Shown: positions 1,396-27,102, counted from the stretch's first letter. The stretch is DNA of 32,000 bases from an uncultured Chloroflexia bacterium (GCA_963718915.1 CAVRAI010000001.1:120001-152000); one strand, 5' to 3'. Numbers and translations: made by a program. Notes: generated from the sequence alone by a model not told the origin.

Positions 1396-1447
1396 GACTT
1401 GATGTCGAGTCCATAACTGGCTCTAGGCCAGTGCGAGTCGCGCAGGC

Positions 1448-1747
1448 TCAGGTTCGGGCAGATGCGGAGCGAGCGATCGTGATGTACCAGTAGCCACCTG
1501 CGAGATTCAGCGTCCCAAGCACCAGGAAAAAGGCTGCCCATCCGTAGGCGCGGTACGAGAGACACATTACGCCCGCGGCAGCTGCGACACTGCCACCGGC
1601 AATACGCGTGCCCCCAGAGGCGCGGAGATGGCGATACTCCCATGGGCTGATCAGGCGATACATGCCAAATCGCGAGGGAGATAGCCACCAGCCACGCAGG
1701 CCTTTCGCAGCGGTGTTGTCGTTGGATGTGTCATTGGATGCGGTCAT
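1448..1747 (-). CDS. Small hypothetical membrane protein (two predicted TM helices)
   Basis: Track ORF 1448..1765 trimmed to the internal ATG at 1747, which has AGGAGG 8 nt upstream. Hydrophobic stretches GGSVAAAAGVMCL and AAFFLVLGTLNLAGGYWYI. Confidence 0.5.
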   Translation of the reverse strand: MTASNDTSNDNTAAKGLRGWWLSPSRFGMYRLISPWEYRHLRASGGTRIAGGSVAAAAGVMCLSYRAYGWAAFFLVLGTLNLAGGYWYITIARSASART

Positions 1748-1846
1748 CGAGATGCCTCCTGTCACCGGTGATGTGAGTCATCCGACCATCTCTCAAAGTG
1801 ACATCTATCCTGGGGACGCTCTCAACAGGCGAAGAATGCAACCCGT

Positions 1847-2167
1847 CTACACGCCCTGACGCAATCCTTCCTCGATCCAGGTGATGTGCTCGGTCGCATG
1901 CCCCGCTCTCCCTGCAAACACGTCGCCGACGGCCTGCTCACCAACGACCAGGGGCATTAAAGCAGCTAGTTGATCATCGGTGAACTGATGCAGGAGGTCC
2001 AATGTTTCCTGCCGCGCCGCCAGGAAATCTGCTGCTAGCATCTCCATACTGTCATCATGGTGCGCGTTCACGTAGGTTTGATTGACGCTGGCGACGGCCA
2101 GCTCCAGCCGCTCATCCTCCTCCGGGGTTAGCGCGTCCCAATCGCCCAGAATGCTCGGCAGCGGCAT
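1847..2167 (-). CDS. Hypothetical protein, possibly a DinB/ClbS-like helical bundle; start uncertain
   Basis: 106-aa ORF with acidic helical sequence ending GHATEHITWIEEGL. The frame stays open for 19 more codons upstream without a start codon. A good SD-ATG (GGAGAGAAATCATG) sits there in another frame, so the 5' end may be frameshifted. Confidence 0.4.
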   Translation of the reverse strand: MPLPSILGDWDALTPEEDERLELAVASVNQTYVNAHHDDSMEMLAADFLAARQETLDLLHQFTDDQLAALMPLVVGEQAVGDVFAGRAGHATEHITWIEEGLRQGV

Positions 2168-2670
2168 GCCCTCCGGGTATTGCAGGCGTAAGAGACCGTC
2201 TCGCGTCTCGCCGGCATGATTTCTCTCCTAGAAACCAGTGGGAAGCACTAGAAAGCACAAGGCGTGTCCAGACGACTCCGCCAGTCCTAGAGACGATAGG
2301 CAACAGGCACTATAACATACAAAAGGGGAGCAAACTTCTCCTATCTTGCTCTTTTCCGCTCGACTCTATCGCCAATCTCTCCCGCAAGGCAGGTCTATGA
2401 GCGTGTTTGACAGGGCATTGGGGAGTCTGAGACGGCAGAAGAGCAAGATAGAAGAAGCGTTTTGAGAGTCCGCATGCTATCCTGAGAGGGCGCCACCGCA
2501 TGACCCGGCAAGGACCACTTTACCACCAGGGCGTACGCTGAGGTGTGGGGGTTGCCGGTTAGGGGCGAGAAAACAGGCAGTTTCGAGAGTCGCTGCGGCC
2601 AGTGTCTGTACTCTACTCAAGCGAGCAGGGAAGACCGTCGGCCCTGATAGCAGTGATTAGGAGAGCCATC

Positions 2671-3426
2671 ATGAAATTACTGCTCACTTCCGCTGGCATC
2701 AAGAACACCAGCATCCACAACGCGCTGGTCGACCTGCTGGGCAAACCGATTGCTGAGTCAAGCGCCCTCGTCATTCCCACCGCGATCTACCCCTTCCCTG
2801 GCGGCGCTGCCGGGGCCTACCGGGCGATCCGCGGAATAGCCGCCAGCCCCTTGTGCGAATTGGGGTGGAAGTCGTTGGGCGTGCTGGAGCTGACCGCGCT
2901 GCCCAGCATCGATGACGAAGCCTGGATCCCCACGGTCCAGGAGACTGACGCCCTGCTGGTGTGGGGCGGCGATCCACTGTATCTCTCCTACTGGATGCGA
3001 CAATCGAGACTGGCCAACCTCTTGCCCTCGCTGCGGCGCGAGTCGGTCTACGTCGGGGTGAGCGCCGGGAGCATGGCGACGGCCGCCACCTTCGGCGAGA
3101 CCTATCTTGATCCGCCCAAGGGCGCTAGGGCCAGCGGTGAGGCGCTCACGTCGGAAGACATCGTGTTCGCCACACCCCAGGGAGACATCAGCAGGAACCT
3201 GGTCACGGCTCATGGCGTGGGGCTGGTTGACTTTGCGGTGATTCCGCACCTGGATCACGAGGATCACCCGGACGCTTCCCTGGCCAACGCGAAACAGTGG
3301 GCCGCACGGCTACAAGCACAGGTACCCGTGCCAACGTACGCGATTGACGATCAGACCGCCATACAAGTGGTCGACGGCGCCGTTGAAGTCATCTCCGAGG
3401 GGCACTGGCAGCTGTTTACCCCCTGA
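2671..3426 (+). CDS. Peptidase S51 family (dipeptidase E-like)
   Basis: Track ORF 2602..3426 trimmed to the ATG at 2671 (AGGAGAG 6 nt upstream). MKLLLTSAG start, LVWGGDPLYL, and the nucleophile-elbow-like VGVSAGSM are typical of S51/PepE-like proteins. Confidence 0.75.
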   Translation: MKLLLTSAGIKNTSIHNALVDLLGKPIAESSALVIPTAIYPFPGGAAGAYRAIRGIAASPLCELGWKSLGVLELTALPSIDDEAWIPTVQETDALLVWGGDPLYLSYWMRQSRLANLLPSLRRESVYVGVSAGSMATAATFGETYLDPPKGARASGEALTSEDIVFATPQGDISRNLVTAHGVGLVDFAVIPHLDHEDHPDASLANAKQWAARLQAQVPVPTYAIDDQTAIQVVDGAVEVISEGHWQLFTP

Positions 3427-13895: not shown

Positions 13896-14471
13896 TCAGG
13901 GAAGCAGGCCAAGGTACTGCGCGAGGAAGTAGCCGAACGCCAGCAGACCAGCGCCAATGCAGTAATACGCGAAAGGGTCCAGCGATTGCGTCTCGAAGTA
14001 GCGCATGAGGAAGCGCACCGAGAGATACGCCGCCACGCCCGCAATCACGCCGCCGATGAGCGCGAGTACGAGGATCTGCGTGCCCGCGCCGAAGAGCTTG
14101 GGAATCTCGAGCAGTCCCGCCGCCAGGATGATAGGAGTGGCCAGCAGAAACGAGAAGCGCGCCGCCGACTCATGGCTTAGCCCAATGCTCATGCCGGCGA
14201 CCATCGTGATGCCGGAGCGCGAGATACCTGGGAAAAGCGCCAGCGACTGCGCCAGGCCAATCAGCGCCGCCTGCACAAAGCTCATCTCCTGCAATGACTG
14301 ATCGAACTCGGCGTCATCCACCGCACGAACTGGGTCACCAGCGGACTGATAGGCGCCGCCTTGCAGCGCGGTCGCACCGAGGGTTACGCCACTTTTGTTG
14401 ATGGATTGCGCGTGGATGAAGCGTTGACGCCGGGTCAGGCGCTCGGCGGCGAGCAGCACCGCGCCATTCAT
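13896..14471 (-). CDS. uppP: Undecaprenyl-diphosphate phosphatase, C-terminal half (split gene)
   Basis: Contains the second UppP signature LFPGISRSGITMVAG and the C-terminal TM helices. Its ATG overlaps the stop of the upstream half (ATGA at 14471-14468). Confidence 0.8.
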   Translation of the reverse strand: MNGAVLLAAERLTRRQRFIHAQSINKSGVTLGATALQGGAYQSAGDPVRAVDDAEFDQSLQEMSFVQAALIGLAQSLALFPGISRSGITMVAGMSIGLSHESAARFSFLLATPIILAAGLLEIPKLFGAGTQILVLALIGGVIAGVAAYLSVRFLMRYFETQSLDPFAYYCIGAGLLAFGYFLAQYLGLLP

Positions 14472-14869
14472 GCGAGAAACGCCGCCGCCAGAATAGGCGC
14501 GCCAAAGAGCGCCTCGAGTTTGGTCTGGAAAAGCACGCCAATGAGACCGGCGGGCAACGTCCCGACAATCACGAGCGCCAACTGGCGTCCGTAGCCATGT
14601 GGATCGACATCCGGGGTAAATCTTCCCGCGATAAGCACCTTCACCCCGCCTTGTAGCAGATGCACCCAGTCGCGCCAGAAGAATGTCAGCAGCGCCAGCG
14701 CGGTGCCCAGGTGCAGTGTGACGACCAGCGGCAGAAAGGTGTCGCTGCGCAATAGATCGCCCCAGCCTAACAGCCCTGGGATGATGACAGTATGGCCGAG
14801 ACTGCTGACGGGAAAAAGCTCGGCGACGCCCTGCAGAAGGGCCAGAAGCACTACACGCACAGGATCCAT
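14468..14869 (-). CDS. uppP: Undecaprenyl-diphosphate phosphatase, N-terminal half (split gene)
   Basis: Contains the first UppP signature ELFPVSSLGH. Ends ...GAPILAAAFLA-stop exactly where full-length UppP continues with the helix found at the start of the next ORF (MNGAVLLAAERL). Confidence 0.8.
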   Translation of the reverse strand: MDPVRVVLLALLQGVAELFPVSSLGHTVIIPGLLGWGDLLRSDTFLPLVVTLHLGTALALLTFFWRDWVHLLQGGVKVLIAGRFTPDVDPHGYGRQLALVIVGTLPAGLIGVLFQTKLEALFGAPILAAAFLA

Positions 14870-16250: not shown

Positions 16251-18842
16251 CTAGCGTCGGGTTTGGTACGGCGGCCAAAAGCGCACTGCCCGCAAGAATC
16301 CACGCGCCGGGGGATTCTGACGGGGAAGCCCGTGCGAGGCATAGTGATCCTTGTACTCAGTAAAGAAGTAGTCGCGGAGCATGGTGCTTCTAACGATGAA
16401 GCTGTATCCACTTCCCTCCCGGCGCAACAGGTGATAGCCAGCCGCTTTTTTGAGGAATCTGGTGATCGAGCATGGAATGATCTTTGATTTCCTGAGTTGC
16501 CGTCGTATCCTGGCATGTTGTATCCATGCGGCGCCACCACGGCCAAGCGCGATACTTACACCAACGACAGTCCCGACGCCCATCCCTATCACCGCGCCAA
16601 TTGCCGCATCAATCAGACCAGCATGCAACCCTAAACCAGGCGACTTGCCTGTGTTTAGGGTTCCAATCCAGACTGCTCCAAGAAGCATCGAACCAACCAG
16701 TATTAAGCCAACGATCAGCCCAGCAAATATGGAAAGGCTGAGAATACCAAGGGCCGCTTGCCCCGCGTGAATGAACCAAGCATCAGGGCCGGAATCGCGC
16801 CCGAGCCAGATGAGTATTCCAGTAACCGTTCCAAAGATGATGGCGGTTGCTACTCCGCATATCAATCCGAGAACTATTCCGCCCAGCGTTCCGCCCAACG
16901 CCACGGCGACGAGAGATACAAACGCCACGCCAACGCCCGCGAAAGACAGCGACTGTTGCACGGTGAGACCAGTACGCTTCGTCGGTTCAACTAATTCGTC
17001 GTCGCGCTCGGAGTCAACGACTTGAAAACCGAACCCAACGCCTAACCCGCCAATCAATCCAATGAGCGGATAAAGGAGCCAGGATAACCATCCAGGAGAC
17101 ACTCCAGGAGACACTCCAGGAGACACTCCAAGCGCTGGCTCGAAGACATTCCCTCCGCCGCTTGCGTAGAGCATAGCTATTACTATGCCCACGGCGATTC
17201 CAAGTAGCGGTCCAAACGTGAACCGAATAGCGAGACTGATGTTCCTCAGGTCACGACGGTAGTTCTTCACTGTATCGTCTTGCGAGGGAAGCAACTCTCG
17301 TGACAAATTTTTCAGATAGAAGATCCTCAAGCCTTGTTTATGCAGCGCGTGCCCTACCCAGGCCAACCCTTTCTCCATCTGGCGGATTTCGTCATCTGAT
17401 GGCGTATACCCTGCCTTGCGTTTTTGGTCGGGGAACTTCATCATCGTCTCGACATACCCGCGGAATATGGCGGTCTGCGGCGCCACGCCAGATACGACCG
17501 AGGAGGAAATCTGGCTCGCGTCAAGGTCATTCAGATTCATCAGCGCCAGATTCAGCATGAGTGGTGTGCGCAGTGTGTCACCCATCTCGTTATGAGACAA
17601 GGCGACTTGTCGCAGGTCGCGTATACGCTGCGCCGCGTTGAGATTTCCTTCTCGCCGCTTGGTCGCCACAGCGCCATCCAGCGCCGTCGTCACCTGATCT
17701 GGCGTGAGCCGCAGCAACCGCACAGCATATGGGAGATTCAACGTTTTTGGAGCTAGTGCGCGATACTCATCGTCACGACAGCAAACGACCAGTGGTCTGT
17801 CTGCGTCTCGCTTGCTTCCCGCCAAATACCCGCTGATTTTATCAACGCATATCTTCCGATCTTCAATTTCCATGATATCGAGTGAGTCCAGCAGCGGCAG
17901 AATCAGCCCTTTGCTCACCCAGCGATGCGCGGTCTTCTTGTGGACATTGTAGACGAGCGCAATACCATCGACGAGCCATTTCTCGAACCGGACTTTGTTA
18001 CCTTTTGGCCAGGTTGCAAGATCGAGAATCACCGGAATGTATAGCTCAGCAGCGCGTTCCTTCGCGCGTTCCTCACGTAGCTTCCGTTTGGCCTCATCGG
18101 CCAGGGCCTTGCCCAGCACATAGAGCTGGGTGCTCTTCCCTCCACCTGGCTCCGCAAGGATCAGCAGGTGCTGTTGACCCGCATCAAAGGCCTCCCGCAC
18201 GATCCGCGCCGTCACATTGTACGCGTCGCTCGTAGCACGGATAGTATCGATGTCAATATGCGCTCCCAGGGCCGCCGAGTGTTGAACAGCATCTGGCGCC
18301 ATTTCCACCCCAAGCGCAAAACGACCAGCTTTTATCAACGGGTTGTCTAAATGATCGCTATACCGTTTGGCGAGGCTTACCAGAAACCTCCACTCGTTCT
18401 TCTCTTCTTGCGCGAATACACGCCTTACTGTTGGAATGCCAATGATGATTGCGACCAACAACACGAGCAAAAAATTGGATGACCAGGGTTGGTGGTTGTG
18501 AATCGTCTGCGACAACTGCTCGATGCTCGACACCAGGTCATTCAGAAGAATGCCGAGCAATCCGGAGACCAATCCCGCGACTATCTCTAAAGGGAGTTGT
18601 AGACGGCTGAGCCATTGTCTCCACATATTTTCATTGAGCGCCCGCTGGATGGCAATGAGGCTACCAAATAGAATGATGAATAGCAGCGCGGTAATCCCGC
18701 AGGAAACCGCGATGTGCTCCCGGACAAATGGGATCTGCTGTATCCAATCACTGGCGAGGGTGTTCTCTAAAAGAGAGGCTAATGCAGCTGGAAGCGCCGC
18801 CAGAAACGTCAGGGTCAGGGTTTGTCTCAGCGTTCGATTCAC
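16251..18842 (-). CDS. Membrane-embedded NACHT-type STAND P-loop NTPase (about 4 N-terminal TM helices, NACHT, about 8-10 TM helices, WH-like tail)
   Basis: GTG start with AAGGAGG 5 nt upstream. Walker A LILAEPGGGKST (18129-18146), LYIPVILDL, Walker B-like LILPLLDSLDIME (compare LLDGLDE), and TPLMLNL. The C-terminal FLKKAAGYHLLRREGSGYSFIVRSTMLRDYF resembles the NACHT winged-helix motif. Long Gly/Ala/Ile/Leu-rich hydrophobic segments span residues about 540-790. Confidence 0.75.
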   Translation of the reverse strand: MNRTLRQTLTLTFLAALPAALASLLENTLASDWIQQIPFVREHIAVSCGITALLFIILFGSLIAIQRALNENMWRQWLSRLQLPLEIVAGLVSGLLGILLNDLVSSIEQLSQTIHNHQPWSSNFLLVLLVAIIIGIPTVRRVFAQEEKNEWRFLVSLAKRYSDHLDNPLIKAGRFALGVEMAPDAVQHSAALGAHIDIDTIRATSDAYNVTARIVREAFDAGQQHLLILAEPGGGKSTQLYVLGKALADEAKRKLREERAKERAAELYIPVILDLATWPKGNKVRFEKWLVDGIALVYNVHKKTAHRWVSKGLILPLLDSLDIMEIEDRKICVDKISGYLAGSKRDADRPLVVCCRDDEYRALAPKTLNLPYAVRLLRLTPDQVTTALDGAVATKRREGNLNAAQRIRDLRQVALSHNEMGDTLRTPLMLNLALMNLNDLDASQISSSVVSGVAPQTAIFRGYVETMMKFPDQKRKAGYTPSDDEIRQMEKGLAWVGHALHKQGLRIFYLKNLSRELLPSQDDTVKNYRRDLRNISLAIRFTFGPLLGIAVGIVIAMLYASGGGNVFEPALGVSPGVSPGVSPGWLSWLLYPLIGLIGGLGVGFGFQVVDSERDDELVEPTKRTGLTVQQSLSFAGVGVAFVSLVAVALGGTLGGIVLGLICGVATAIIFGTVTGILIWLGRDSGPDAWFIHAGQAALGILSLSIFAGLIVGLILVGSMLLGAVWIGTLNTGKSPGLGLHAGLIDAAIGAVIGMGVGTVVGVSIALGRGGAAWIQHARIRRQLRKSKIIPCSITRFLKKAAGYHLLRREGSGYSFIVRSTMLRDYFFTEYKDHYASHGLPRQNPPARGFLRAVRFWPPYQTRR
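17091..17130. repeat. In-frame 12-bp tandem repeat TCCAGGAGACAC x3.3 inside the NACHT gene
   Basis: Counted directly. On the coding strand it encodes GVSP-GVSP-GVSP-G in a loop of the C-terminal TM region. Confidence 0.9.
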
Positions 18843-18855
18843 GATGACCTCCTTT

Positions 18856-18903
18856 TAGCGCACCCTCGCAATAGCGCTATTCAGAGCGCGGCACATGCGC
18901 TAT
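18856..18903. promoter_or_regulatory. Perfect 12-bp palindrome AATAGCGCTATT with flanking half-sites in the leader of the NACHT gene
   Basis: AATAGCGCTATT at 18870-18881, 28 nt upstream of the GTG at 18842. The half-site recurs as TAGCGC (18856-18861) and GCGCTAT (18897-18903). Confidence 0.4.
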
Positions 18904-19021
18904 CCTGCGAACCATACGAGCACCACACCAGCTATAGAGATGACTCTCGTATACAAGGGCAGAGCGATGAGGCTGACAATTCTGTTCTCTAGACCAGGTG
19001 GCGCCACAGGTTGCAGGCGGG

Positions 19022-20542
19022 CTATTTGTTCGGCCACCTCAGCTTGAGATCGCGGTAGTACCGTATAAAGGGCGTCATCACCAGGATGGTAGCGACCGTG
19101 TACGGCGCGAAGCGATTGGCGATGGCTTCCATTGGCATATCCAGCACATCGGAGAGTACCAGAGCCACGAAGAAGGCAAAGCTGACCCCCGCGACCAACT
19201 CTGTTCCCCAGAGAAATACGCGCACGTAGATGCGTCCGGGACGCGGAACCCCTATCGGGCCGCCTCGGCCCATGGCATGCAGATCACGCCAGAGAAGCGC
19301 TCCATAGAGGAGTCCGGGGATGAGCAGCATCCACGCAAAGCTCCAGTCGTCGGGGCTGACACTGGCCTCGGTGTATCCCAGACGGTTCATGATCGCCAGG
19401 AAGACATGGCCCAGCAGCAGGGACGCGCCAGCAAAGAATACCGGCCCCACCACGAATGACAGCATCATGATGCCATAGCCCAACCCAGAGCTATCGTCCG
19501 ACTCACTGACACGCCGCCTTTCGCGCCAGAAATAGACCACCAGCATGATCAGGCCAGCGACGAACGGCCCCAGGAAGGGATAGCTGGCCAGGCCAAACTC
19601 ACCAGGGGTAGAGAGCAGCGATTGCGGAATGACCGCCTCCGTATGCCCGGTGACGATGTCGAGGATGAACCGTATACCCAACACGCTGTAGAGAACAATG
19701 ATCACGCCTGTGACGGTGGCTCCGATCATCGCATCGAGGTTGCGGAGCCAGATGCTGTTGCCCCAGGTTTCTTTATCCAGAGTGGCCCAGCGGATATAGG
19801 CATAGAAAACGAGCAGAATCACAAGCATCGTCACGAGCGCGCCGGGAATCGGCGCTGTATCGGTGCATGTCTGCGCGAACCGTGAGATGAACGCCAGGAG
19901 TTGCGAGGGGATATCGAGTTCGCGCGAACAGAGCGGCAGCGGCGCAATCGCCGTCTGCAGCAAGGATTGCACCGTCTGCGCGATGGCCCAGATGGCCATG
20001 ACAAGCACGATCCACTGGCCCAGGAGCGCGAAGAACACGGCGATCTTCTGGCCCGCTTCCTCAAACTTCCCACCCTTGGCCCATTCCAGCACCACCAGCA
20101 CCAGCGCGATCCCCCAGGCGATTACTGCCGCGAGCGGCGAGGCGATAGGGAGGCTGCTGGGCTGCGAGAGCGCATCCAGATTACGGACGATAAGAACCAC
20201 CGACAGCAGGATCCTCAGACCGATGAAGCAGACCAGCACCGCCAGGAAGATCGCGCGAATGACTCCACCACGTCCCTCGCTCGTTGTCTTGCGGTCGTGG
20301 CGTATCAGGAGCCAGCCAATGACGCCAATCACCAGGACGACAACATCCGCCGGAATATTGGTAAAGATGGGCAGATCGCTCACCAGATCAAGCAACCCAC
20401 CCAGCGTGAGAACGTCGGTGAACCCAACGCGCAGCAGCAGGTTGTGCGCAACATTTTGCAGCACATTACCCAGGTAGACGAGACAGCATGTGGTGATGAA
20501 ATAGTAGATGAAGCGCAGGACGCGCTGTACTGCCGAGGTCAT
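19022..20542 (-). CDS. Hypothetical polytopic membrane protein (at least 10 predicted TM helices)
   Basis: Track ORF 19022..20575 (GTG) trimmed to the ATG at 20542 (GAGGAAAAGGAAA upstream). Hydrophobic helices throughout. No family recognised. Confidence 0.7.
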   Translation of the reverse strand: MTSAVQRVLRFIYYFITTCCLVYLGNVLQNVAHNLLLRVGFTDVLTLGGLLDLVSDLPIFTNIPADVVVLVIGVIGWLLIRHDRKTTSEGRGGVIRAIFLAVLVCFIGLRILLSVVLIVRNLDALSQPSSLPIASPLAAVIAWGIALVLVVLEWAKGGKFEEAGQKIAVFFALLGQWIVLVMAIWAIAQTVQSLLQTAIAPLPLCSRELDIPSQLLAFISRFAQTCTDTAPIPGALVTMLVILLVFYAYIRWATLDKETWGNSIWLRNLDAMIGATVTGVIIVLYSVLGIRFILDIVTGHTEAVIPQSLLSTPGEFGLASYPFLGPFVAGLIMLVVYFWRERRRVSESDDSSGLGYGIMMLSFVVGPVFFAGASLLLGHVFLAIMNRLGYTEASVSPDDWSFAWMLLIPGLLYGALLWRDLHAMGRGGPIGVPRPGRIYVRVFLWGTELVAGVSFAFFVALVLSDVLDMPMEAIANRFAPYTVATILVMTPFIRYYRDLKLRWPNK

Positions 20543-20634
20543 GCCAATTTCCTTTTCCTCACATCGACGCGCCACACCGTCACGTCACCATACCGCCGTA
20601 CCGCTGTGTCGCCCTCAACACCATTCGCTCTGGT

Positions 20635-21843
20635 TCATGGGGCGATATGACTCATATCGAGGGCAAACAGCACACACACCTGGCAGTAGAATTTGCCTGG
20701 AGATGTCTTGATAAACTTGTTAGAACTCAAATTAACGCCGCGGCCATTGATGATGCTGTGCATGATGACGTTGTAGCGTTTCTCGACCTGAGGTGGCCCA
20801 CCCTGATTGCCAGCTTGCGACCGCGTGTTGGGTTGCTGTTTCACCTGTTCATCATGCGTCAGCCGTTGCTGAACGAGAGTAGCGACATCGTCGAATTTGG
20901 GGTTGTTTGATTTGAAGGGCACAATCAGATTGACCGAGATCGGTTGCTGATGCGGATCCACCCCTTGCCGCGTAAATGGCTCGACAGTAGTCATCGCTGA
21001 GGGGTCGTCCTGAAGGATCGAGCGTGAAAGCGTGACGAGGGTGTCCGCCGCATCCGCTGCCGAGATGAACCGGGTGAAATGGCGAAAAATAGGGTAGAAG
21101 AGGCGGCCGATGAATTTATCTGGCTTCTTCATCGTGAGGCCCTGCGTTTTGACGGCCATCCCGATGAACGGCTTCGTGGAGGGTTGGCGGATCGTCTCCA
21201 CTTGCAGTTCGAGACCAGGGTTGTACATCCTGTGGTTCGGCGCCGTACAGATCCCCGCCAGACTCTTTGCCAGCAACCTGAACTGCGTCTCCTGCCCACC
21301 AACGGACTGATGGAGAGGAGAATCGGTTCGCACGATGAACGCTGCCTCGAAGATGGGCTGGTTACTGTTCGCCGCATCGGGCCTGGTATATTGTTCCAGC
21401 GCCTCGTACGCCGCGCGATTTCCGCCTCGTTGTGTGCTATCAGCAACGCAGATAACAGTAATGAACAACGGCTGGACGGAGCTAACGCGCAGATGACGAA
21501 ACACCTCGGCGTAATCTGGCTTTTGCAGCATACTGGCGTCAATGATGAGCAACAGCGATTCTGACGCAAAGTCGAGAACATGCCGACTCAGATCAACCAG
21601 ATCGTCAAGTTCCGCATTGGGAAACTGCACGATTGGCTTGGGCTTGACGCTGAGATCTTCGACATGCAGCTTGCGATTGCGCGTCAGCCGATGTATTTTC
21701 TGTCGGACTCTGGCGCCAGCCTCGCGATCATAGACGCCAATGGCGACCAGCCCATGCCCCGGCGGTCCATCGACAAGTTCGCGAACAACCTTCTCGGTCA
21801 GCTGGCTACTCAACTTGCCCACACCAAGGATGATTGAAGGCAC
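20635..21843 (-). CDS. Hypothetical soluble protein, paralog of the C-terminal domain of the 706-aa neighbour; degenerate Rossmann/tubulin-like alpha/beta domain
   Basis: GTG start with GGGAGGA 6 nt upstream. Collinear blocks are shared with residues 333-706 of ORF 22062..24182 (see findings). Confidence 0.7.
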   Translation of the reverse strand: MPSIILGVGKLSSQLTEKVVRELVDGPPGHGLVAIGVYDREAGARVRQKIHRLTRNRKLHVEDLSVKPKPIVQFPNAELDDLVDLSRHVLDFASESLLLIIDASMLQKPDYAEVFRHLRVSSVQPLFITVICVADSTQRGGNRAAYEALEQYTRPDAANSNQPIFEAAFIVRTDSPLHQSVGGQETQFRLLAKSLAGICTAPNHRMYNPGLELQVETIRQPSTKPFIGMAVKTQGLTMKKPDKFIGRLFYPIFRHFTRFISAADAADTLVTLSRSILQDDPSAMTTVEPFTRQGVDPHQQPISVNLIVPFKSNNPKFDDVATLVQQRLTHDEQVKQQPNTRSQAGNQGGPPQVEKRYNVIMHSIINGRGVNLSSNKFIKTSPGKFYCQVCVLFALDMSHIAP

Positions 21844-22061
21844 TGGTTATCCTCCCTCAGAGGCTACTGATATACCGCCAGATGGCGGCGCGCCATCTAC
21901 TACCTGGCGCGCTATCGCATCATCACTCTGCTCATCCAGTCTTCGCGATACGCATGTTCGCGCCAAATAGCCGAGCACAGGTATCAACAGCCTCCCAAGG
22001 CAACATAGGCGCCGCCTCGATACGCGCTGGGAGGCCGCGGTCTCATGACAGGGCTTGCGGC

Positions 22062-24182
22062 TTATCCCAATTTCCCTGGCCGATGCCTCCGGAACGCGGT
22101 AAAGTGGAAGTAGTAATCGCCCTTCCAGATTCTCAGCGGACTGCTGGCTCCGCTGATGTCTATCCCCTTATCGTTGGTGTTTCCCAGCTGTTCGATGGTC
22201 ACCTGACCCTGGTTCACACCATAGGCGCGCAGCCAATCGTTGACGTACTGCTTGAATTCATCTAGTTGGCGTAGCCGCTCTGGAACGACCAGATTGATGA
22301 AAGGCACTGCCGCCAGGTTTTCCTTGACCGTCGAGAGCGTCTGATTCCCCGCTGGGAAGACCTTCGCGGCGACCAGCTTCAGTATTCTTGAGGCGGTAGC
22401 AGAGTTGATGTCACCCCTACTACCATAGACAGGGCCATCCTGGAAGGCGGTCCTCGCAGTGTTCACGCCAATAGACCCGGCCTCAAGGGCCGAGAACGAA
22501 TACTGCGCATTATGCATTTGTTGCGCGACGGCGGCGAAGTTGGCGGAAGCGTTATAATCGCCAGCGACGAGCAGCGCCGCAATGCTGCGGTGCAGCACCT
22601 CAGAGTACTTGCCCTTCATCTCGCCGGCCAGCGGGCAGTTATCCTGGATAACCACCGTGGTCGCCAGGATAGAGCCTGACTTCTTCGCCCAATTGTTCAA
22701 TTCCTCGGCTGTCTGCTTTAACTCGGCTGTAATCGGGTCTGGCACAAGCCAGAGGATGACCAGTCGAATGTTCTGATCGTTGACAGTCGGAGCACCGCCA
22801 GCCTGCGCCTGCGCGCCGACCAGTTGACCAGACATCACCGCATCAAGTTTTTGTAGCGCGAGTCGAGACGCCTCCAGATCATCTCCATAGGCAACCCAGA
22901 TGAGCCGTTTGACGACAGTTGTCCTGTTGCTGAAATAGCCCTGGTCGAGTGTCTTCACCAGCGCGTCTGCGGCATCCTCTGCGGTCTGGCTGTCAGTGTC
23001 TGGTGTGACGACCGCAGCCGCGACGTGCATATTGCTCAACCGATTTTTCATCCTGCTCGCCAGCGTCGCGTTGGGCATGTAGTAGCCAGCCAACCAGGCG
23101 TACTCACCCTGCAACGCGCGCACCTGCCTGCAGATACCCTCGGCGAACGTGCTGCCCTGCGAACCAAAGCCGATGATCGTCAGATCGCGATTCTCGACGG
23201 GTTCAGGCGGTTTCGCCTTTCCCTCTCGATGGGTGATGCCATAGAGCGCGGCGTTGATGAGACCGAACAAGCCAATGATGCCACCGATGATCGCACAGAT
23301 TGCGCTCGCGAGCAAACAAATCAGTGCGGCGGCGCCGCCGATCACGAGCGTGCCGAGACCTTCGAGCGCCTGATACCATCCTGGCCACGCCAGAAAGATA
23401 GCAATCGCCACGAGAGCAGAGGTGCCAACAAAAACCGTGACGACAACCTCTAAATCCTTGGCGTTCAGGTATTGCTGGAGGATACCGCCGATTGTCAGGA
23501 ACACGACGACGACGACGTCCAGCGCAAACATGAAGATGGCGAGACCAAGCTTGATCTTCTTCTCAAGCTCCCCAGCATCAGGCTCAAGCTTGACCGCGAC
23601 TGGAAGGCCCGTAGTCTGTTCCTGGATCAACATGCCAGAAAGCGCCGCTATCGAGACGAACAGCACTCCTGTAATGACCTGGAGGTACTGGAAGAGTGTC
23701 TTCATGAATCCGGGCGCCTCACCACCACCAAAGAGGATGGGCGCGCGCGTGGAGACCAATACATAGTCAGAGCCGACACAGACAACCACCAGCAGGAGAT
23801 AGATGATACGCCTGACCCATGCACTGGTGATTTCGTTGGAGTTAGGATTTCTGGGCTCCCCGAGCTCATCGGTGATTCTCTTCTTGATTTGCGCAATCTC
23901 ATCGTCCGTTAATCGTACGCCATTTTTTTTGGCCTCCTGCTTCCTCACCTCAGCATAGGTCAACCGGTTGATGTGCTCCTCTTGTCGCTTCTTTTCACCC
24001 TCGCGGCTCCAAATCCTCTTGATGTTGCCCCAGATGGCTTTGGCAGCCGCCAGGAGAAATCTTCGCCCACGGTCAAAGCCGTTAGAGACCCTGTAGGCGA
24101 GGTTGGGAACCAGCGTCAGAGCAAGCAGCACCGCCACCACAACCAGTATCATGTCGACCCACGGCGTGAAGAACTGCGCCAT
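22062..24182 (-). CDS. Hypothetical membrane protein: about 6 N-terminal TM helices with a charged coiled segment, plus a cytosolic Rossmann/tubulin-like domain with GxGxxG
   Basis: ATG with GGGAGGGG SD. TM helices lie within residues 10-315. The soluble domain from residue 333 (nt 23186 downward) begins LTIIGFGSQGSTFAEG. Confidence 0.75.
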   Translation of the reverse strand: MAQFFTPWVDMILVVVAVLLALTLVPNLAYRVSNGFDRGRRFLLAAAKAIWGNIKRIWSREGEKKRQEEHINRLTYAEVRKQEAKKNGVRLTDDEIAQIKKRITDELGEPRNPNSNEITSAWVRRIIYLLLVVVCVGSDYVLVSTRAPILFGGGEAPGFMKTLFQYLQVITGVLFVSIAALSGMLIQEQTTGLPVAVKLEPDAGELEKKIKLGLAIFMFALDVVVVVFLTIGGILQQYLNAKDLEVVVTVFVGTSALVAIAIFLAWPGWYQALEGLGTLVIGGAAALICLLASAICAIIGGIIGLFGLINAALYGITHREGKAKPPEPVENRDLTIIGFGSQGSTFAEGICRQVRALQGEYAWLAGYYMPNATLASRMKNRLSNMHVAAAVVTPDTDSQTAEDAADALVKTLDQGYFSNRTTVVKRLIWVAYGDDLEASRLALQKLDAVMSGQLVGAQAQAGGAPTVNDQNIRLVILWLVPDPITAELKQTAEELNNWAKKSGSILATTVVIQDNCPLAGEMKGKYSEVLHRSIAALLVAGDYNASANFAAVAQQMHNAQYSFSALEAGSIGVNTARTAFQDGPVYGSRGDINSATASRILKLVAAKVFPAGNQTLSTVKENLAAVPFINLVVPERLRQLDEFKQYVNDWLRAYGVNQGQVTIEQLGNTNDKGIDISGASSPLRIWKGDYYFHFTAFRRHRPGKLG

Positions 24183-24406
24183 TATCTATCCCCTCCCGAG
24201 AAACTAGCGAGATGCTCTCGCCTGGTGTGATGACGCCAAGAAAATGCAACGGCGTCGCGAAGCGAATGATAACAAGTGCACGGAATCAACTCTCACATAA
24301 TGAGATGCGCCGCACTGAATCGGGCTTGTCTCAGGCAAATTCGCCGCCTGAAATCGTCACCTGATTTCCGATATGCAGTTGACAGAAATTTTGGCGCTTC
24401 CCTTGT

Positions 24407-24427
24407 ATGATACCTTTAGGGTATCAT
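24407..24427. promoter_or_regulatory. Inverted repeat ATGATACC-tttag-GGTATCAT in the divergent control region
   Basis: Perfect 8-bp arms. Lies in the 715-bp low-GC gap between divergent genes (24182 minus, 24898 plus), next to a TTGACA at 24379-24384. Function unproven. Confidence 0.3.
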
Positions 24428-24836
24428 GCCAACGTACATGTAGGCGTCTCCGCTTGACATCATACAGCCTTACAGTACTATATCATGTCAGGCAAGCGCC
24501 CCTGGGAGAACCGGCACGGCGTCTGTGTCCTAATGGTCATTGATACAACCGATGGGTCTGTATCCCCGCATCCGAGCGGGCAACACTTTCAAAATCAGGC
24601 ACGCTGTGTGGTGGCCGTTAACCACCAAGTCACAGAATACCATACCCGCCAACTTTTCGCGACTGGTACTATAATGTGCAACGGTGACATGTCTCCATTG
24701 GAATTGTATTATGCTTGTATTCATTAAGCAGGTACAGTGTGGTAACTTTGTTGCAGTGTTGTGCATTGCGCTGTTTTTCAGTGTTTTCGGGAGGCGTGGC
24801 GCTTACCCGGATAGATCGTTCGTCGCTTCCTGGAGT

Positions 24837-24855
24837 GCAACATGTTGCGCAACAT
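24837..24855. promoter_or_regulatory. Perfect 12-bp palindrome GCAACATGTTGC plus a reiterated GCAACAT half-site upstream of the first lipoprotein gene
   Basis: GCAACATGTTGC at 24837-24848, directly followed by GCAACAT at 24849-24855, about 45 nt before the ATG at 24898. Confidence 0.3.
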
Positions 24856-24897
24856 TATTGGCTTTCCAGTGGAGCATGAGTGTCAGGGGTTCTTTGG

Positions 24898-25806
24898 ATG
24901 AAGAAGCTGTTGGGTTTCGCATTGCTGATGGTGGCGCTATTCTCGTTGCTCGCGTGTGGCACAATTGGAAGCGGCATTCCAACCCCCGCGGCGCAGCCAA
25001 TTCCGACTCTTGCGCTGCGCACTCAGCCTGCCGCCACGCGAGCGCCATTACTCATCCAATTTTGTAATGATGATACAGGGAGCTTCCCACGCAAAGACTT
25101 CCAGGGCGCCAATCAACTCATGGCATCGAGCCTGGAGCAGGCGGTGAGCGCCAATCAGCGAGGAGTAACACTCTACGCCACCGCCATTACCCATAACACC
25201 TTCGATCCCTCGAATACGCTCAATCCAGCGTTCATCGTTCCCGAAATAAAAGCCTATGAGACACCACCAACTCCTGTTCCAACACATGCCCCGCAAGATC
25301 CCGTGACGGATCCCGCCACAGCTACAGCTATATCGCAACAAACGAGCAGTGGCGTCGCCACGTACAATGGAACAGTCGCCACGCTCGACCAAACAATCGA
25401 CAAGGTCAAAAATGACGTGAAGACTGACGTCGCGCGGCTGACATCATGGAACCCCCGTGTTGATAACATCGCCACCAGCATCCTTGGCTGCTTCCAGTTG
25501 GCAGCTTCACGATTCCAGGGGCAGTCGGGCATTAAGCTGATCTATATTGCGTCCGATCTGGAAAACAACACCGATGTTGATTACACGCAAAGCTTCGTGC
25601 AATCGCATGGTCTGGCTGGGGTGATCGTCCACGTCATTTATTTTGTCAGCCCGAGTGCGTCACGCGACCAGCAAAAACGCGCGAAATGGTGTCCATTCCT
25701 GAAGTCCGCGGGGGCCAGTGTGGTTCTGTTCAGTGATCCCACTGCTTCACCGACGTTGTCAGATGTCTTCAACAAAGATCTGGCGACTCCCCCGCAGTCC
25801 TGTTAA
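24898..25806 (+). CDS. Lipoprotein, possible vWA-like fold (paralog 1)
   Basis: Track ORF 24880..25806 trimmed to MKKLLGFALLMVALFSLLAC (lipobox LLAC). DDTGS resembles the MIDAS DxSxS motif. Later ATAITHNTF and IYIASDLENN resemble the vWA T and D positions. Four conserved Cys residues are shared with paralog 2. Confidence 0.7.
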   Translation: MKKLLGFALLMVALFSLLACGTIGSGIPTPAAQPIPTLALRTQPAATRAPLLIQFCNDDTGSFPRKDFQGANQLMASSLEQAVSANQRGVTLYATAITHNTFDPSNTLNPAFIVPEIKAYETPPTPVPTHAPQDPVTDPATATAISQQTSSGVATYNGTVATLDQTIDKVKNDVKTDVARLTSWNPRVDNIATSILGCFQLAASRFQGQSGIKLIYIASDLENNTDVDYTQSFVQSHGLAGVIVHVIYFVSPSASRDQQKRAKWCPFLKSAGASVVLFSDPTASPTLSDVFNKDLATPPQSC

Positions 25807-25850
25807 TGGCCCAGCAACTCAGGAAGGTTGCCTGAAACACTGGAATGCAT

Positions 25851-25887
25851 GCCCCTCCTCGTCTTGTCAGACAGATGAGGGAGGGGC
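25851..25887 (+). terminator. Hairpin after lipoprotein gene 1 (possible terminator, no U-tract)
   Basis: GCCCCTCCTC, a 16-nt loop, then GAGGGAGGGGC (one bulged G), starting 45 nt after the stop at 25806. Confidence 0.3.
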
Positions 25888-26166
25888 TATCTCACATGCG
25901 GGATGTGATAGGCGGGCGATTTTCTGGCTTCTCCTGGTTAGTAGCGATATTTATCGGGCACAAGCAGCGAGAGCCTGTTATAATGCAACCGCGCCGGATA
26001 CGGATTTCGTGTGGAATGCTGTTGAGCATGGCGCGCCGGGAGTTCCGGCATATGGCGCGAGTGGCGCACTGGGCCACAACATTCATGCTCTGGATAGCGA
26101 CGCAGGGCGAAAATCACTGTGACAAATACTTATAGATCTTAGATACCATAGAGGGGGTCGGCATCG

Positions 26167-27102
26167 ATGCTGTCAGCATTCTTGAGTAGCAGGAGTCGCC
26201 AACAGAGCAGAAGTCTCGTCCTCATCTTTGGGCTTATTTGTCTGTTGATATCGCTTATCGCCTGTACAACGATTTCCACGCCCCAGGACACACCGTTACC
26301 AACCATTGCCGCGCATCCACAACCACCGCAAATGCGCCCTCAAGTGCTCATTCAATACTGCGATGACGATACTGGCAGCTACCCACACATGTATTTTGGG
26401 GAAGCCAACCAGCTTATCGCCTCCAGCTTGCAGCAGGCTGTTACGGCCAACCAGCAAGGCGTGACCCTCTATGCGACTGCTATCACCCACGATACCTTCA
26501 ATCCGGTTAATACGCTCAATCCGGCATTTCTCATTCCGTCGATACCGGCCTATCCGACACCGCCAACACCAGCGCCAACCCATGCGTCAGATAACCCCGT
26601 CTTTGACCCTGCTACGGCGACTGCGGTACAGGTTCAGAACGTCAGCAACATAACCACATTCAATAACAGAGTCGCCGCAATAAACCAAACACTCACCAGT
26701 GCTCAGTCGCAGTTGGATAGTGACGTGAAGCGCCTGACATCATGGAAACGCTCCGTAGACCATATCGCGACCAGTGTGCTGGGCTGTTTCCAGTTGGCGG
26801 CTACACGGTTCCAGGGGCAATCAGGCGCTAAAATGCTCTACATCGCCTCTGATCTGGAAAATAACACTGATGTAGACTATACCCAGAACTTTGTGAAAGA
26901 ACAGGAGCTCAAAGATGTGGTGGTTCATGTCATCTACTTCTTTAGCAGCAATGCGGCGCGCGATCAGGTGAAACGATCCAGATGGTGTCCTTATCTCAAA
27001 TCAGCGGGCGCCAGTATGGTCATATTTAGCGATCCAGTCGAGCCGTTGCAGAACAAGGATATGTTCGACGTTGATTTGACCTCGCCTACGCCGAGTTGCT
27101 GA
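26167..27102 (+). CDS. Lipoprotein, possible vWA-like fold (paralog 2)
   Basis: GAGGGGG SD and lipobox LIAC. Collinear with paralog 1 over its whole length (QYCDDDTGSYP, GVTLYATAITH, LGCFQLAATRFQGQSG, YIASDLENNTDVDYTQ, RWCPYLKSAGAS, terminal PSC). Confidence 0.75.
   Translation: MLSAFLSSRSRQQSRSLVLIFGLICLLISLIACTTISTPQDTPLPTIAAHPQPPQMRPQVLIQYCDDDTGSYPHMYFGEANQLIASSLQQAVTANQQGVTLYATAITHDTFNPVNTLNPAFLIPSIPAYPTPPTPAPTHASDNPVFDPATATAVQVQNVSNITTFNNRVAAINQTLTSAQSQLDSDVKRLTSWKRSVDHIATSVLGCFQLAATRFQGQSGAKMLYIASDLENNTDVDYTQNFVKEQELKDVVVHVIYFFSSNAARDQVKRSRWCPYLKSAGASMVIFSDPVEPLQNKDMFDVDLTSPTPSC

Follow-up and report, generated by a model that had tools for sequence, protein, structure and literature searches.

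On two occasions, in 2010 and in 2020, comparative genomics has led to the prediction that a tubulin/FtsZ-superfamily protein is linked with a vWA protein and an NTPase. Makarova and Koonin (2010, PMC2875224) described FtsZl1/vWA/GTPase operons and predicted for them a role in membrane remodelling; the operons occur alongside canonical FtsZ and not in its place, and no experimental function is known for them. FtsZl1 keeps the GGGTG(S/T)G signature and has a coiled-coil and an alpha-helical C-domain, the C-terminal domain of tubulin being absent, and the vWA protein of these operons has an intact MIDAS and is often secreted or membrane-associated (PMC2875224). Kaur, Burroughs, Iyer, and Aravind (2020, PMC7159879, section 29) subsequently described GTPase-centric GAP1-N2 systems that include genes for tubulin and vWA proteins, which are enriched in multicellular bacteria, including Chloroflexi, and which these authors read as regulated assembly of a cytoskeleton-like complex with vWA-mediated peptide binding. 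In Firmicutes, these systems comprise two tubulin-domain genes and two vWA genes (one with its vWA domain extracellular), together with an NTPase and numerous TM segments; Firmicutes and Actinobacteria were the only groups for which the theme with tubulin was reported (PMC7159879). Bacterial NACHT (bNACHT) proteins were proven to be antiphage by Kibby et al. (bioRxiv 10.1101/2022.07.19.500537); they carry a variable N-terminal module, have C-terminal TM domains in several clades, and are also enriched in multicellular bacteria.

Layout of the locus and comparison with described systems

The window, i.e., the whole stretch of 32,000 nucleotides that was analyzed, contains at positions 16251-27102 what we read as a six-gene, predicted envelope-spanning module, limited as far as visible to Ktedonobacterales (Chloroflexota); taken as a whole, this best explanation stands at about an even chance of being right. 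Four ORFs lie on the minus strand: A (22062-24182, 706 aa, ATG), B (20635-21843, 402 aa, GTG), C (19022-20575, 517 aa from a GTG, or 506 aa when started at the ATG at 20542, the form in public collections), and D (16251-18842, 863 aa, GTG). A Shine-Dalgarno sequence stands 5-8 nt before each start (A GGGAGGGG, B GGGAGGA, C AAGGAAA, and D AAGGAGG), and the gaps between the four genes are 218, 92, and 179 bp. These ORFs, with C at about 506 aa, their ribosome-binding sites, and their gaps had been given in an earlier, sequence-only reading of the window, and all were recovered; its further statements that three of the four products are polytopic and that the NTPase of D lies between two TM bundles agree with hydropathy, which finds TM segments in A, C (at least nine), and D (three N-terminal and about 5-6 further ones at residues 535-768) and none in B. 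That reading had drawn the unit as four genes. A-D are indeed syntenic in independent contigs, but the unit is one of six genes, as E (24898-25806) and F (26167-27102), a pair of paralogous lipoprotein genes divergent from A-D, had been left out (24898-27102).

The best promoter-like site is of sigma70 type and directed at E and F (24454-24485, plus strand; TTGACATC, 13-14 nt, TA(C/T)(T/C)ATATCA); its motif recurs in the same orientation in six of the seven divergent A/E intergenic regions, where about 0.2 would be expected by chance. The cluster is compositionally distinct (GC 0.554 vs. 0.625 and 0.637), with GC3 values of 0.59-0.70 in D, E, F, B, and A vs. 0.70-0.81, and the window genes that flank it are housekeeping genes.

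None of the six proteins A-F had a match in Pfam, NCBIfam, or PHROGs, and PADLOC-DB yielded no significant model for any of them, the sole match being LmuA to 43 residues of A (E 5e-4). No GTPase family was matched in the cluster, and D is its only P-loop protein. No named defence, secretion, or division system was matched by the cluster, as had been claimed from the sequence, and Pfam and PADLOC profiles placed none of the four proteins A-D in a characterised system. The cluster had also been called an undescribed system; this is true of the protein families and of their combination, both of which are new, but not of the kind, because the theme of tubulin homologs with vWA proteins, an NTPase, and membrane proteins was already predicted (PMC2875224, PMC7159879).

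Like the FtsZl1/vWA operons, the cluster links a highly diverged FtsZ/tubulin-superfamily protein to a vWA protein with a MIDAS (here E and F, with a MIDAS-like motif), accompanied by a P-loop NTPase and lineage-specific TM proteins (here A, C, and D). Unlike FtsZl1, however, A and B retain a two-domain FtsZ-like fold without the signature, and in A this fold is joined to a multi-TM domain; the FtsZl1 operons encode a TxKD GTPase, whereas the window has a NACHT STAND ATPase that lies outside the invariant core, and OmpA and protein-kinase components are absent. With neither an FtsZl1-type protein nor a TxKD GTPase, the cluster was rejected as an FtsZl1/vWA operon. The resemblance to the GAP1-N2 systems lies in the two tubulin-domain genes (A and B) and the two predicted extracytoplasmic vWA genes (E and F). 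Pfam searches detected neither a GAP1-N2 protein nor a zinc-ribbon GTPase of DO type nor a component with FNIII repeats, the tubulin paralogs lack a coiled-coil tail, and the vWA proteins are lipoproteins without YtkA. Assignment to the GAP1-N2 systems was likewise rejected because GAP1-N2, the zinc-ribbon GTPase, and FNIII are absent from A-F (no Pfam or NCBIfam match) and from the housekeeping flanks.

Predicted tubulin/FtsZ-fold and vWA proteins

A hydropathy scan of B found no hydrophobic segments, and the AF2 model of this soluble protein (pLDDT 87.7, pTM 0.88) gave 482 Foldseek matches in the PDB at E<=1e-3; among the matches listed all were FtsZ or tubulin, and the top 50 were all FtsZ, tubulin, or BtubA, with a target TM-score of up to 0.61. 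B is thus predicted to have the two-domain tubulin/FtsZ fold, consisting of a Rossmann-like N-domain (S1-S6), the core helix H7, and a C-terminal domain, which in the model is alpha/beta with no coiled-coil. The same fold is assigned to the putative cytoplasmic domain of A (residues ~330-706; 22065-23195, minus strand) through its paralogy with B. A direct BLASTP comparison of the two window proteins detected no relation (E 1.5), and hhalign aligned them weakly (prob 8.5%, E 0.004), yet co-linearly over 345 columns. The paralogy is proven because intermediates match both: the B-like protein of locus L018 matches residues 336-697 of A at 6e-10 and B at 6e-17, and the A-like protein of the same locus matches residues 5-401 of B at 8e-11. 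Profile cross-matches agree, with the B profile finding A-like proteins at 1e-37 and positions 335-701 of the A profile finding B-like proteins at 3e-15. Both the soluble domain of ~370 aa that A and B had been said to share and its tubulin-like character are therefore upheld.

The T4 signature GGGTG(S/T)G is absent from A and B, and no family member is Gly-rich in this loop, which in B reads D-A-S-M-L-Q-K-P-D, between S4 (96-102) and H4 (109-121), and in A reads W-V-A-x-G-D-D-L. At S1-H1, both proteins conserve G-x-G-x-x-[SG]-[ST]-x-F, which resembles but is not identical to the T1 motif GxGxxG; G7 and G9 of B are conserved in 13-14 of 14 sequences. The T7 positions (NxDxx(D/E)) were assigned by secondary-structure order, not superposition: after H7, B has N208-P-G-L-E212, with N208 invariant within B, and A has N-A-S-A-N, with no acid. 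In the joint alignment, A and B have no conserved polar residue in common; together with the loss of T4, this makes nucleotide binding and polymerisation by these proteins uncertain and is a point against our best explanation of the cluster. The Pfam models Tubulin, FtsZ_C, Tubulin_2, and Tubulin_3 did not match A, B, or ten distant family members, even at E<=0.1-10, and neither FtsZ nor tubulin appeared among the PDB sequence matches or the 48 exhaustive HMM matches. Judging from motifs and model, A and B would add to the tubulin superfamily a sequence-orphan branch without GGGTGSG.

Residues 1-317 of A (23232-24182, minus strand) contain six hydrophobic segments in the hydropathy scan, which we read as seven TM helices, and the positive-inside rule predicts an N-out/C-in topology. 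An alignment of 18 A-like proteins shows W122, D139, R146, and P157 to be conserved family-wide, in TM2 or around the first predicted extracytoplasmic loop (144-162).

E (24898-25806, plus strand) is a 302-aa lipoprotein, the form on record, with a predicted extracytoplasmic vWA domain; its lipobox is LLAC, whose cysteine becomes Cys26 when the ORF is counted from the GTG at 24880. F (26167-27102, plus strand; 311 aa), identified by ORF call, alignment, and synteny, is a paralog of E at 60% identity, with lipobox LIAC and the same vWA/MIDAS features, and both proteins carry signal sequences. The AF2 model of E (pLDDT 84.2) gave Foldseek matches to vWA domains at 1e-4 to 2e-3 (prob 0.95-1.00), the targets being Rpn10, VWF A1/A3, collagen VI, Ku70/80, Sec23/24, BatB, and integrin I domains. 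E and F are accordingly assigned a vWA alpha/beta fold; Pfam VWA matches neither. A MIDAS-like D64-x-T66-x-S68, with no variation at D64 and T66 and hardly any at S68, stands straight after beta1 (57-63) as a candidate Ser-to-Thr variant of DxSxS in which no residue is assigned to the fifth ligand (Thr). S225-D226 follows beta4 (218-224) and scarcely varies among 32 sequences, the family pattern being S/T-D. The lipobox Cys and four conserved cysteines are kept in the family alignment.

Membrane proteins C and D and the distribution of the cluster

The polytopic protein C (19022-20542, minus strand, as the 506-aa form) is an orphan with no Pfam or PDB relative, and comparisons with the membrane parts of A and of D showed no relation either. 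It co-occurs with D, with orthologs in L001, L002, L003, L004, L005, L006, and L015; D orthologs adjoin C in L001, L002, L003, and L015, and the D gene has a convergent orientation in L003 and L015, in the second of which it is broken into two ORFs.

As judged from sequence, transitive homology places D in the NACHT clade of STAND NTPases as a divergent member. Its E value is 2e-41 against P0003 and ranges from 1e-11 to 4e-23 against P0004-P0017, and these homologs carry PF05729 (P0003 scores 33.7 bits vs. a Pfam NACHT cutoff of 26.7); after in-silico removal of the TM insert, 10 of 12 D-family members match NACHT, with a best E of 1.8e-12. For D itself, neither the full-length protein nor its isolated core nor a form lacking the TM insert has a Pfam NACHT match, and its ortholog P0001 scores 19.2 bits, below the cutoff.

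Three N-terminal TM helices (residues 39-145; 18408-18728, minus strand) occupy the place where relatives of D carry TIR, kinase, trypsin, or HTH modules. The NTPase core (residues ~190-440; 17523-18275) was delimited by column-by-column family alignment and contains Walker A GGGKST (K236), Walker B LLDSLDI (D319, D322), sensor-1 VVCCR (R356), and TPLMLNL (426-432); EPGGGKST, LLDSLDIME, and TPLMLNL are columns conserved over the D family, and GGGKST, VVCCR, and TPLMLNL conform to Walker A GxxGxGK[ST], the sensor-1 Arg, and TPLxL, respectively. A Gly-rich TM bundle of about 5-6 helices (residues 535-768; 16539-17240) has a GVSPGVSPGVSPG repeat in a loop, gene D containing a 12-nt tandem repeat at 17091-17130; the bundle is present in all 18 family members and is common to the TIR-, kinase-, trypsin-, and HTH-fused relatives. 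Beyond it lies a conserved, predicted cytoplasmic C-terminal segment (residues 775-830; 16353-16520) with the family consensus KHxxLR...FLDxA...LLRkVGGGYiFiHrLLxEYFA. It resembles the NLR winged-helix motif, and we tentatively take it to be the winged-helix part of the STAND module; a TM-deleted D profile aligned only the NBD of NLRC4, and weakly (E 0.01).

Walker B of D (D319-S-L-D322-I) has four of the five positions of D[GAS]hDE, as that signature is defined in 10.1101/2022.07.19.500537, the final Glu being gone. The same Glu is gone in P0001 (DSLDT), P0002 (DALDA), and P0003 (DALDV), whereas 13 of 14 other relatives have DG[LF]DE and P0015 has DGLDN. Because D keeps Walker A and the sensor-1 Arg without the last Walker B acid, slow hydrolysis is suggested. 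D had been described as an unmistakable NACHT protein: the motifs are present and homologs place it in the NACHT lineage, but the wording was overstated, because D has no Pfam NACHT match and its Walker B lacks the final Glu. D resembles bNACHT proteins in its central NACHT-lineage NTPase; they are typically single-gene systems, whereas D belongs to a conserved cluster of several genes, carries TM helices in the place of an enzymatic effector, no longer has the last Glu of D[GAS]hDE, and is itself matched by neither Pfam nor PADLOC. The accompanying claim that bacterial NACHT proteins are usually single and soluble needs amending in that TM-containing bNACHTs are already documented (10.1101/2022.07.19.500537).

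Cluster members are syntenic in 12 related loci at 25-83% identity, so the related contigs are not near-identical strains; A, B, C, and D are all four syntenic in independent contigs at 25-71% identity, which upholds the earlier reading of them as one unit. Order and adjacency are kept over the 12 loci down to 25-35% identity, with completely different flanking genes and genomic neighbourhoods that vary between contigs. The invariant core over these loci is a vWA lipoprotein and the TM-tethered tubulin-fold protein A; B is present in nearly all of the 12, a minimal two-gene E+A form also occurs, and the tandem E/F pair is kept in L003, L004, L011, L012, L014, L015, and L016. C and D are confined to the window's subclade and were not found in the more distant versions L016, L018, and L020, where the core has no NTPase or recognisable effector; the NACHT protein thus cannot be essential to core function, and its proposed place at the centre of the system has to be given up. 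E and F are the best conserved members, the sole invariant partners of A, and the slowest-evolving (83%/70% identity where D has 45%/25%), D being the fastest. Slow evolution of this kind is unlike that of arms-race sensors and is a point against our best explanation. An exhaustive HMM search of 1.84 billion proteins found 48 representatives of the tubulin-fold family, apparently all Ktedonobacterales, a restriction that rests on a few named MAGs, and there was one match among 185,579 species genomes; the cluster is rare and belongs to soil Ktedonobacterales.

Possible functions of the module

The cluster is a real, conserved module, and both a conflict and a morphogenetic role were considered. 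Its genes might instead be mere neighbours whose density gives the appearance of a system, and indeed A-D each have their own Shine-Dalgarno sequence and are 92-218 bp apart; this is extremely improbable and effectively refuted by the synteny over 12 loci amid wholly different flanks, and paralogs are paired on both sides of the membrane with the divergent promoter conserved.

In our preferred explanation, E and F, probably paired as a heterodimer, would lie at the outside of the cytoplasmic membrane and bind a ligand or partner loop through their metal site, the best candidate contact being the conserved D139/R146/P157 loop of A. A would pass a signal across the membrane, and its cytoplasmic tubulin-fold domain would pair or co-assemble with B, as in alpha/beta-tubulin or BtubA/B; because the T4 GTP signature is gone, a regulated scaffold is likelier than a dynamic filament driven by GTP. 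D may, in the lineage of the window, act as a switch gated by NTP: through its membrane helices its nucleotide state would be passed on to C or to the membrane itself, with its N-terminal TM bundle filling the slot of the TIR, kinase, or peptidase effectors of its relatives. By analogy, the most likely setting is among the envelope-associated, NTP-dependent "tubulin + vWA" systems, which Kaur et al. placed with the conflict and stress systems of multicellular bacteria. The distinct composition of the cluster, its varying neighbourhoods, and the effector-bearing relatives of D also speak for this explanation, whereas the versions of the core without NTPase or effector and the lack of PADLOC and PHROGs matches speak against it.

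Two other readings compete with this one; the earlier reading had raised both kinds of role, chiefly abortive infection by membrane disruption and, besides, developmental membrane remodelling. The module may serve morphogenesis or the envelope in filamentous, sporulating Ktedonobacteria, with A and B as a membrane-attached scaffold that positions or answers wall-facing vWA lipoproteins in hyphal growth, septation, or spore formation, and the NACHT protein as a later regulatory addition. A tubulin/FtsZ fold with a direct membrane tether, the strong purifying conservation of E and F, the conserved promoter, and the minimal E+A form all suit such a role, as does the membrane remodelling that Makarova and Koonin predicted for their FtsZl1/vWA operons, which are analogous (PMC2875224). 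We nevertheless consider it unlikely, as the family is very rare (48 of 1.84 billion proteins), the composition is island-like, the genomic location is not conserved, and the GTP signature needed for dynamic filaments is gone. An abortive-infection or antiphage system centred on D, in which D senses infection, oligomerises, and permeabilises the membrane with C and the TM domains while A, B, E, and F are accessory sensors, is about as unlikely. It would fit the proven antiphage role of bacterial NACHT proteins (10.1101/2022.07.19.500537), the TIR, kinase, and trypsin effectors of D-family members, the matches of the relative P0006 to defence-domain models, and the location of one such relative in a TIR-rich neighbourhood with a transposase, as well as the low-GC block, the variable neighbourhoods, and the fast evolution of D. 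The absence of D and C from the more distant versions does not fit, nor does the convergent orientation of D in L003 and L015 or its splitting in L015; moreover, the six proteins have no PADLOC match and no enzymatic effector, Walker B of D is degenerate, and the putative sensors E and F are highly conserved, not diversifying.

A bolder reading, which we regard as rather unlikely, makes the core an "integrin-like" device: an extracellular metal-dependent site would be coupled mechanically or allosterically to an intracellular tubulin-superfamily assembly without canonical GTP chemistry, and a membrane-embedded NLR-type NACHT protein (with C) would have been recruited in the window's lineage as a guard or read-out. 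In metazoan integrins, an extracellular vWA/I-like MIDAS domain is linked through the membrane to the cytoplasmic cytoskeleton; the comparison is a working analogy only, with no homology past the vWA fold, and unlike in integrins the link goes to tubulin-fold proteins and is partly on a separate polypeptide. To our knowledge, no version of a system of tubulin, vWA, and NTPase components has been studied experimentally. The cluster is a compact and unusually explicit version, in which the tubulin fold is fused to a membrane domain and the vWA proteins are lipoproteins, both as paralog pairs, and it offers testable candidate contacts at the E/F MIDAS site, at the loop of A that holds D139, R146, and P157, and between A and B. 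D is a natural case of a NACHT/NLR-type switch with TM helices on both sides of the NTPase that was recruited to a multigene system and, if the integrin-like device is real, would be the first NLR-like switch to be connected, through a membrane, with a scaffold of tubulin fold. The branch formed by A and B bears on how far the tubulin fold can drift from GTP-driven polymerisation.

Gene content and boundaries of the cluster

Four minus-strand ORFs had been read from the sequence alone as a candidate undescribed membrane system containing a NACHT protein, and all four were recovered by ORF calling. These are A (22062-24182; 706 aa), a membrane domain joined to a tubulin/FtsZ-fold domain; B (20635-21843; 402 aa), a soluble paralog of the latter domain; the polytopic membrane protein C (19022-20575 if it starts at a GTG, 19022-20542 with the ATG chosen in the sequence-only reading, whose 506-aa product is the form in public collections); and D (16251-18842; 863 aa), a membrane-embedded STAND NTPase of NACHT lineage. 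The Shine-Dalgarno strings and the intergenic gaps of 218, 92, and 179 bp were exactly as first described, and the A-B-C-D order was found again in independent metagenome contigs. Synteny of the four genes was thus borne out, but their proposed boundary was not. A gene of ~300 aa divergent from A recurs in contigs of D and B relatives, the contexts compared being those of the only two full-length D relatives (P0001, 45% identity; P0002, 29%) together with B relatives. The window has two such plus-strand ORFs of ~300 aa, E (24880/24898-25806) and F (26167-27102), which are 60% identical and encode vWA lipoproteins; both belong to the unit, which therefore has six genes.

Public copies of the cluster proteins are all named "hypothetical protein", and scanning the six against Pfam, NCBIfam, PADLOC, and PHROGs gave no significant match. 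The six genes coincide with a low-GC block (GC of 0.554; flanks, 0.625 and 0.637). GC3 values are 0.60 for D, 0.60 for E, 0.59 for F, 0.65 for B, 0.70 for A, and 0.75 for C, versus 0.70-0.81 for the flanking genes. The flanks carry housekeeping genes (alpha/beta hydrolase, UppP, TPP enzyme, Zn-ADH), a repeat search revealed no mobile-element boundaries around the block, and Rfam and tRNA scans of the window found nothing. A phage or prophage origin was considered and rejected, there being no PHROG match, integrase, or tRNA. The undecaprenyl-diphosphatase gene (BacA/UppP, PF02673) is itself split into two overlapping minus-strand ORFs of 133 aa (14468-14869) and 191 aa (13896-14471), the latter aligning with no more of the profile than positions 113-256; the split marks a frameshift or a pseudogene, if it is not a sequencing error.

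A sigma70-type promoter directed toward E (TTGACATC, 13-14 nt, TA(C/T)(T/C)ATATCA) lies at 24454-24485 on the plus strand. It was found in six of seven divergent intergenic regions (the window and related loci L003, L004, L005, L011, and L015), when about 0.2 would be expected by chance. Downstream of it is a leader of 170-480 nt that shows no sequence conservation, and no element of comparable conservation was found on the A side.

Tubulin-fold and vWA proteins

An AlphaFold2 model of B built with 12 homologs (pLDDT 87.7, pTM 0.88) gave 482 Foldseek matches in the PDB at E<=1e-3, and all those among the matches listed were FtsZ, tubulin, or BtubA. The order of secondary structure elements follows FtsZ topology one-to-one (S1-S6, H7, C-domain), and B is accordingly modeled as a tubulin/FtsZ fold. 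The string GVGKLSS in B was rejected as a P-loop, given that it occupies the T1 position of a tubulin-like fold. Direct BLASTP of A against B detected no similarity, a result superseded by intermediates and profiles: transitive BLAST via L018, profile cross-hits, and a co-linear joint alignment identify the soluble domain of A, by sequence, as a paralog of B. Common to both in that alignment are a T1-like G-x-G-x-x-[SG]-[ST]-x-F, DSPL, LA[KR]S[LI]AG, N-h-I-V-P, G-x-G-[VI]-[ND]-[LI]-S, and a terminal strand KG-x-x-Y-x-Q-V. At the T4 position, the family has IIDA or WVAxG instead of the tubulin signature GGGTGSG, and no polar residue is conserved in both A and B; canonical GTPase chemistry is therefore unlikely.

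An exhaustive HMM search of 1.84 billion representatives yielded 48 members of this tubulin-fold family, both A-like and B-like, none of them a canonical FtsZ or tubulin. Ten distant members scanned against Pfam gave no match, nor any link to its tubulin families, and a PDB sequence search with the B profile returned only generic P-loop or noise matches.

The hydropathy scan agreed with the sequence-only reading in finding hydrophobic segments in A, C, and D and none in B. Six lie within residues 1-317 of A, a region that can be read as a single TM helix separated by a long basic linker from about six more; the positive-inside rule would make A a seven-helix protein with N-out/C-in topology, its tubulin-fold domain in the cytoplasm. 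In an alignment of 18 A-like proteins, the first predicted outside loop is framed by conserved W122, D139 (17/18; close to where TM2 ends on the outer side), R146 (18/18), and P157 (18/18), and P201 and G268 are likewise conserved.

The model of E (pLDDT 84.2) matches the vWA domains of Rpn10, VWF A1/A3, collagen VI, Ku, Sec23/24, BatB, and integrin I, with a helix of about 45 residues inserted at 144-188. The E/F family does not vary at D64 or T66 and hardly does at S68 (E numbering), all three immediately downstream of beta1, and S225-D226 follow beta4; these residues appear to reproduce the MIDAS pattern. Both proteins have a lipobox Cys plus four other Cys that are conserved, which fits their prediction as extracytoplasmic lipoproteins. 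The family comprises 70 clusters, those that are named being from Ktedonobacterales, and a Ktedonobacterales MAG was the single match among 185,579 species genomes.

The NACHT-lineage protein D and its neighbor C

D itself has no Pfam NACHT match. It does, however, match P0003 (E 2e-41), which at 33.7 bits clears the NACHT cutoff of 26.7; D matches its other relatives with E values between about 1e-11 and 4e-23. The P-loop strings originally quoted were confirmed, at alignment columns that the D family conserves, and D retains Walker A, the sensor-1 Arg, and TPLMLxL intact (P0001 has Asn in place of that Arg). The defining Walker B signature is D[GAS]hDE (10.1101/2022.07.19.500537). At residues 319-323 of D (17880-17890 region), it reads DSLDI, the last Glu having been lost, and the cluster-linked subclade P0001-P0003 is likewise degenerate (DSLDT, DALDA, DALDV). 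Thirteen of the remaining 14 relatives have DG[LF]DE, and P0015 has DGLDN.

Besides three hydrophobic segments at its N terminus, D has another bundle, rich in Gly, at residues 535-768. In each of the 18 D-family members, a conserved LLRkVGGGYiFiHrLLxEYFA-type segment comes after a TM bundle, and NACHT was matched by 10 of 12 once the TM insert had been removed in silico. The bundle may be inserted in a winged-helix domain (WHD) of D; in the split winged-helix test, also performed with the insert removed in silico, only an NBD alignment to NLRC4 (E 0.01) was obtained. PDB sequence searches with D and its profile gave only generic P-loop or noise matches. A perfect 12-nt tandem repeat in the D gene, TCCAGGAGACAC (17091-17130; three 16-nt copies that overlap), specifies GVSPGVSPGVSPG within a TM-bundle loop and is a possible slippage-prone tract.

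The N-terminal module of D relatives varies (TIR, protein kinase, trypsin-like peptidase, or HTH), and in the cluster-linked subclade, it consists of three to five TM helices. The TIR-bearing relative P0006 (L022) matches defense-domain models. Its neighborhood encodes two further TIR proteins, one stand-alone and the other TIR-WD40, and includes a radical-SAM gene and an IS240 transposase; tubulin and vWA genes are absent there, and L022 looks like a conflict or defense island.

C has at least nine hydrophobic segments and no detectable relative in Pfam; a PDB search with its profile gave noise or generic matches only, and hhalign against the A and D alignments detected no relationship between the membrane domains. 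Judged from its sequence, this polytopic membrane protein is an orphan.

Conservation, precedents, and possible roles

E and F are divergent from A-B-C-D in the window, as is E alone in L001, where the contig ends beyond it; L002 has (A)-B-C-D. In L003 and L015, E and F are divergent from A-B-C, and D is convergent. The L015 ortholog of D (551-3288) is split within the TM bundle into 728 and 182 aa, which makes the conserved C-terminal segment a separate polypeptide. Contig ends cut short L004 (E and F divergent from A-B, with C at the end), L005 and L006 (E divergent from A-B-C), L011 (E and F divergent from A), and L021 (E-A-B). L016 has co-linear E-F-A-B followed by an unrelated 267-aa membrane protein and no D, L018 has co-linear E-A-B without C or D, and L020 has E-A only. 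Flanking genes were different at every cluster locus compared. B is present at nearly all loci, and C and D co-occur, limited to the window's subclade. From these gene contents, all with different flanks, the invariant core is a vWA lipoprotein plus TM-tethered A, and the central role that the sequence-only reading gave the NACHT protein is not borne out. In the Ktedonobacterales MAG of L018/L019, a 289-aa non-vWA lipoprotein precedes the E-A-B variant, and an IS605 OrfB/TnpB (Cas12f-like) gene (L018 5022-6152; L019 475-1605) lies ~1 kb upstream of it.

The best-conserved cluster members are E and F. Identities between the window and L001 or L003, respectively, are 83% and 70% for E, 71% and 34% for B, 66% and 31% for A, 66% and 36% for C, and 45% and 25% for D. 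The A-proximal (E-type) and distal (F-type) copies are distinct old paralogs forming two orthologous lines, the E-type being consistently the better conserved (window, L003, L004, and L015); the more distant variants L018, L020, and L021 have a single vWA copy.

The tubulin-plus-vWA kind of system is known but, to our knowledge, experimentally untouched. Operons of FtsZl1, vWA, GTPase, and membrane-protein genes were predicted by Makarova & Koonin (PMC2875224) to function in "membrane remodelling", and Kaur et al. (PMC7159879, section 29) described GAP1-N2 GTPase systems, which in firmicutes contain tubulin and vWA genes, two of each, one vWA domain being extracellular. The cluster resembles both in outline but belongs to neither, having no GGGTGSG, coiled-coil, or Pfam tubulin match and no GAP1, GTPase, or FNIII component. 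Beyond both, it has a tubulin fold fused directly to a multi-TM domain, vWA lipoprotein pairs, and a NACHT protein where those systems have a GTPase; TM-containing bacterial NACHT proteins as such are already known (10.1101/2022.07.19.500537). No earlier description of this protein family or gene cluster was found in the literature searched; the original claim of novelty stands for the family and cluster, but not for a completely new kind of system. The cluster is real and conserved and is best classed as a previously undescribed version of the predicted tubulin/vWA systems.

Given the observed composition, folds, paralogy, synteny, hydrophobic segments, and signal/lipobox sequences, and the predicted sidedness of the proteins, E and F would lie on the outer membrane face, where their metal site would bind a ligand or partner loop. 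A would carry the signal across the membrane, the tubulin-fold paralogs A and B would pair or co-assemble, and D with C would provide a lineage-specific NTP-gated membrane switch or effector. Such a system may act in conflict, in keeping with the conflict-type relatives of D, the island-like composition of the block, and the varying location of the cluster between genomes; the high conservation of E and F, the existence of a minimal E plus A form, and the absence of an enzymatic effector, however, argue against classical defense. The cluster may instead serve in envelope surveillance, or it may function in morphogenesis.
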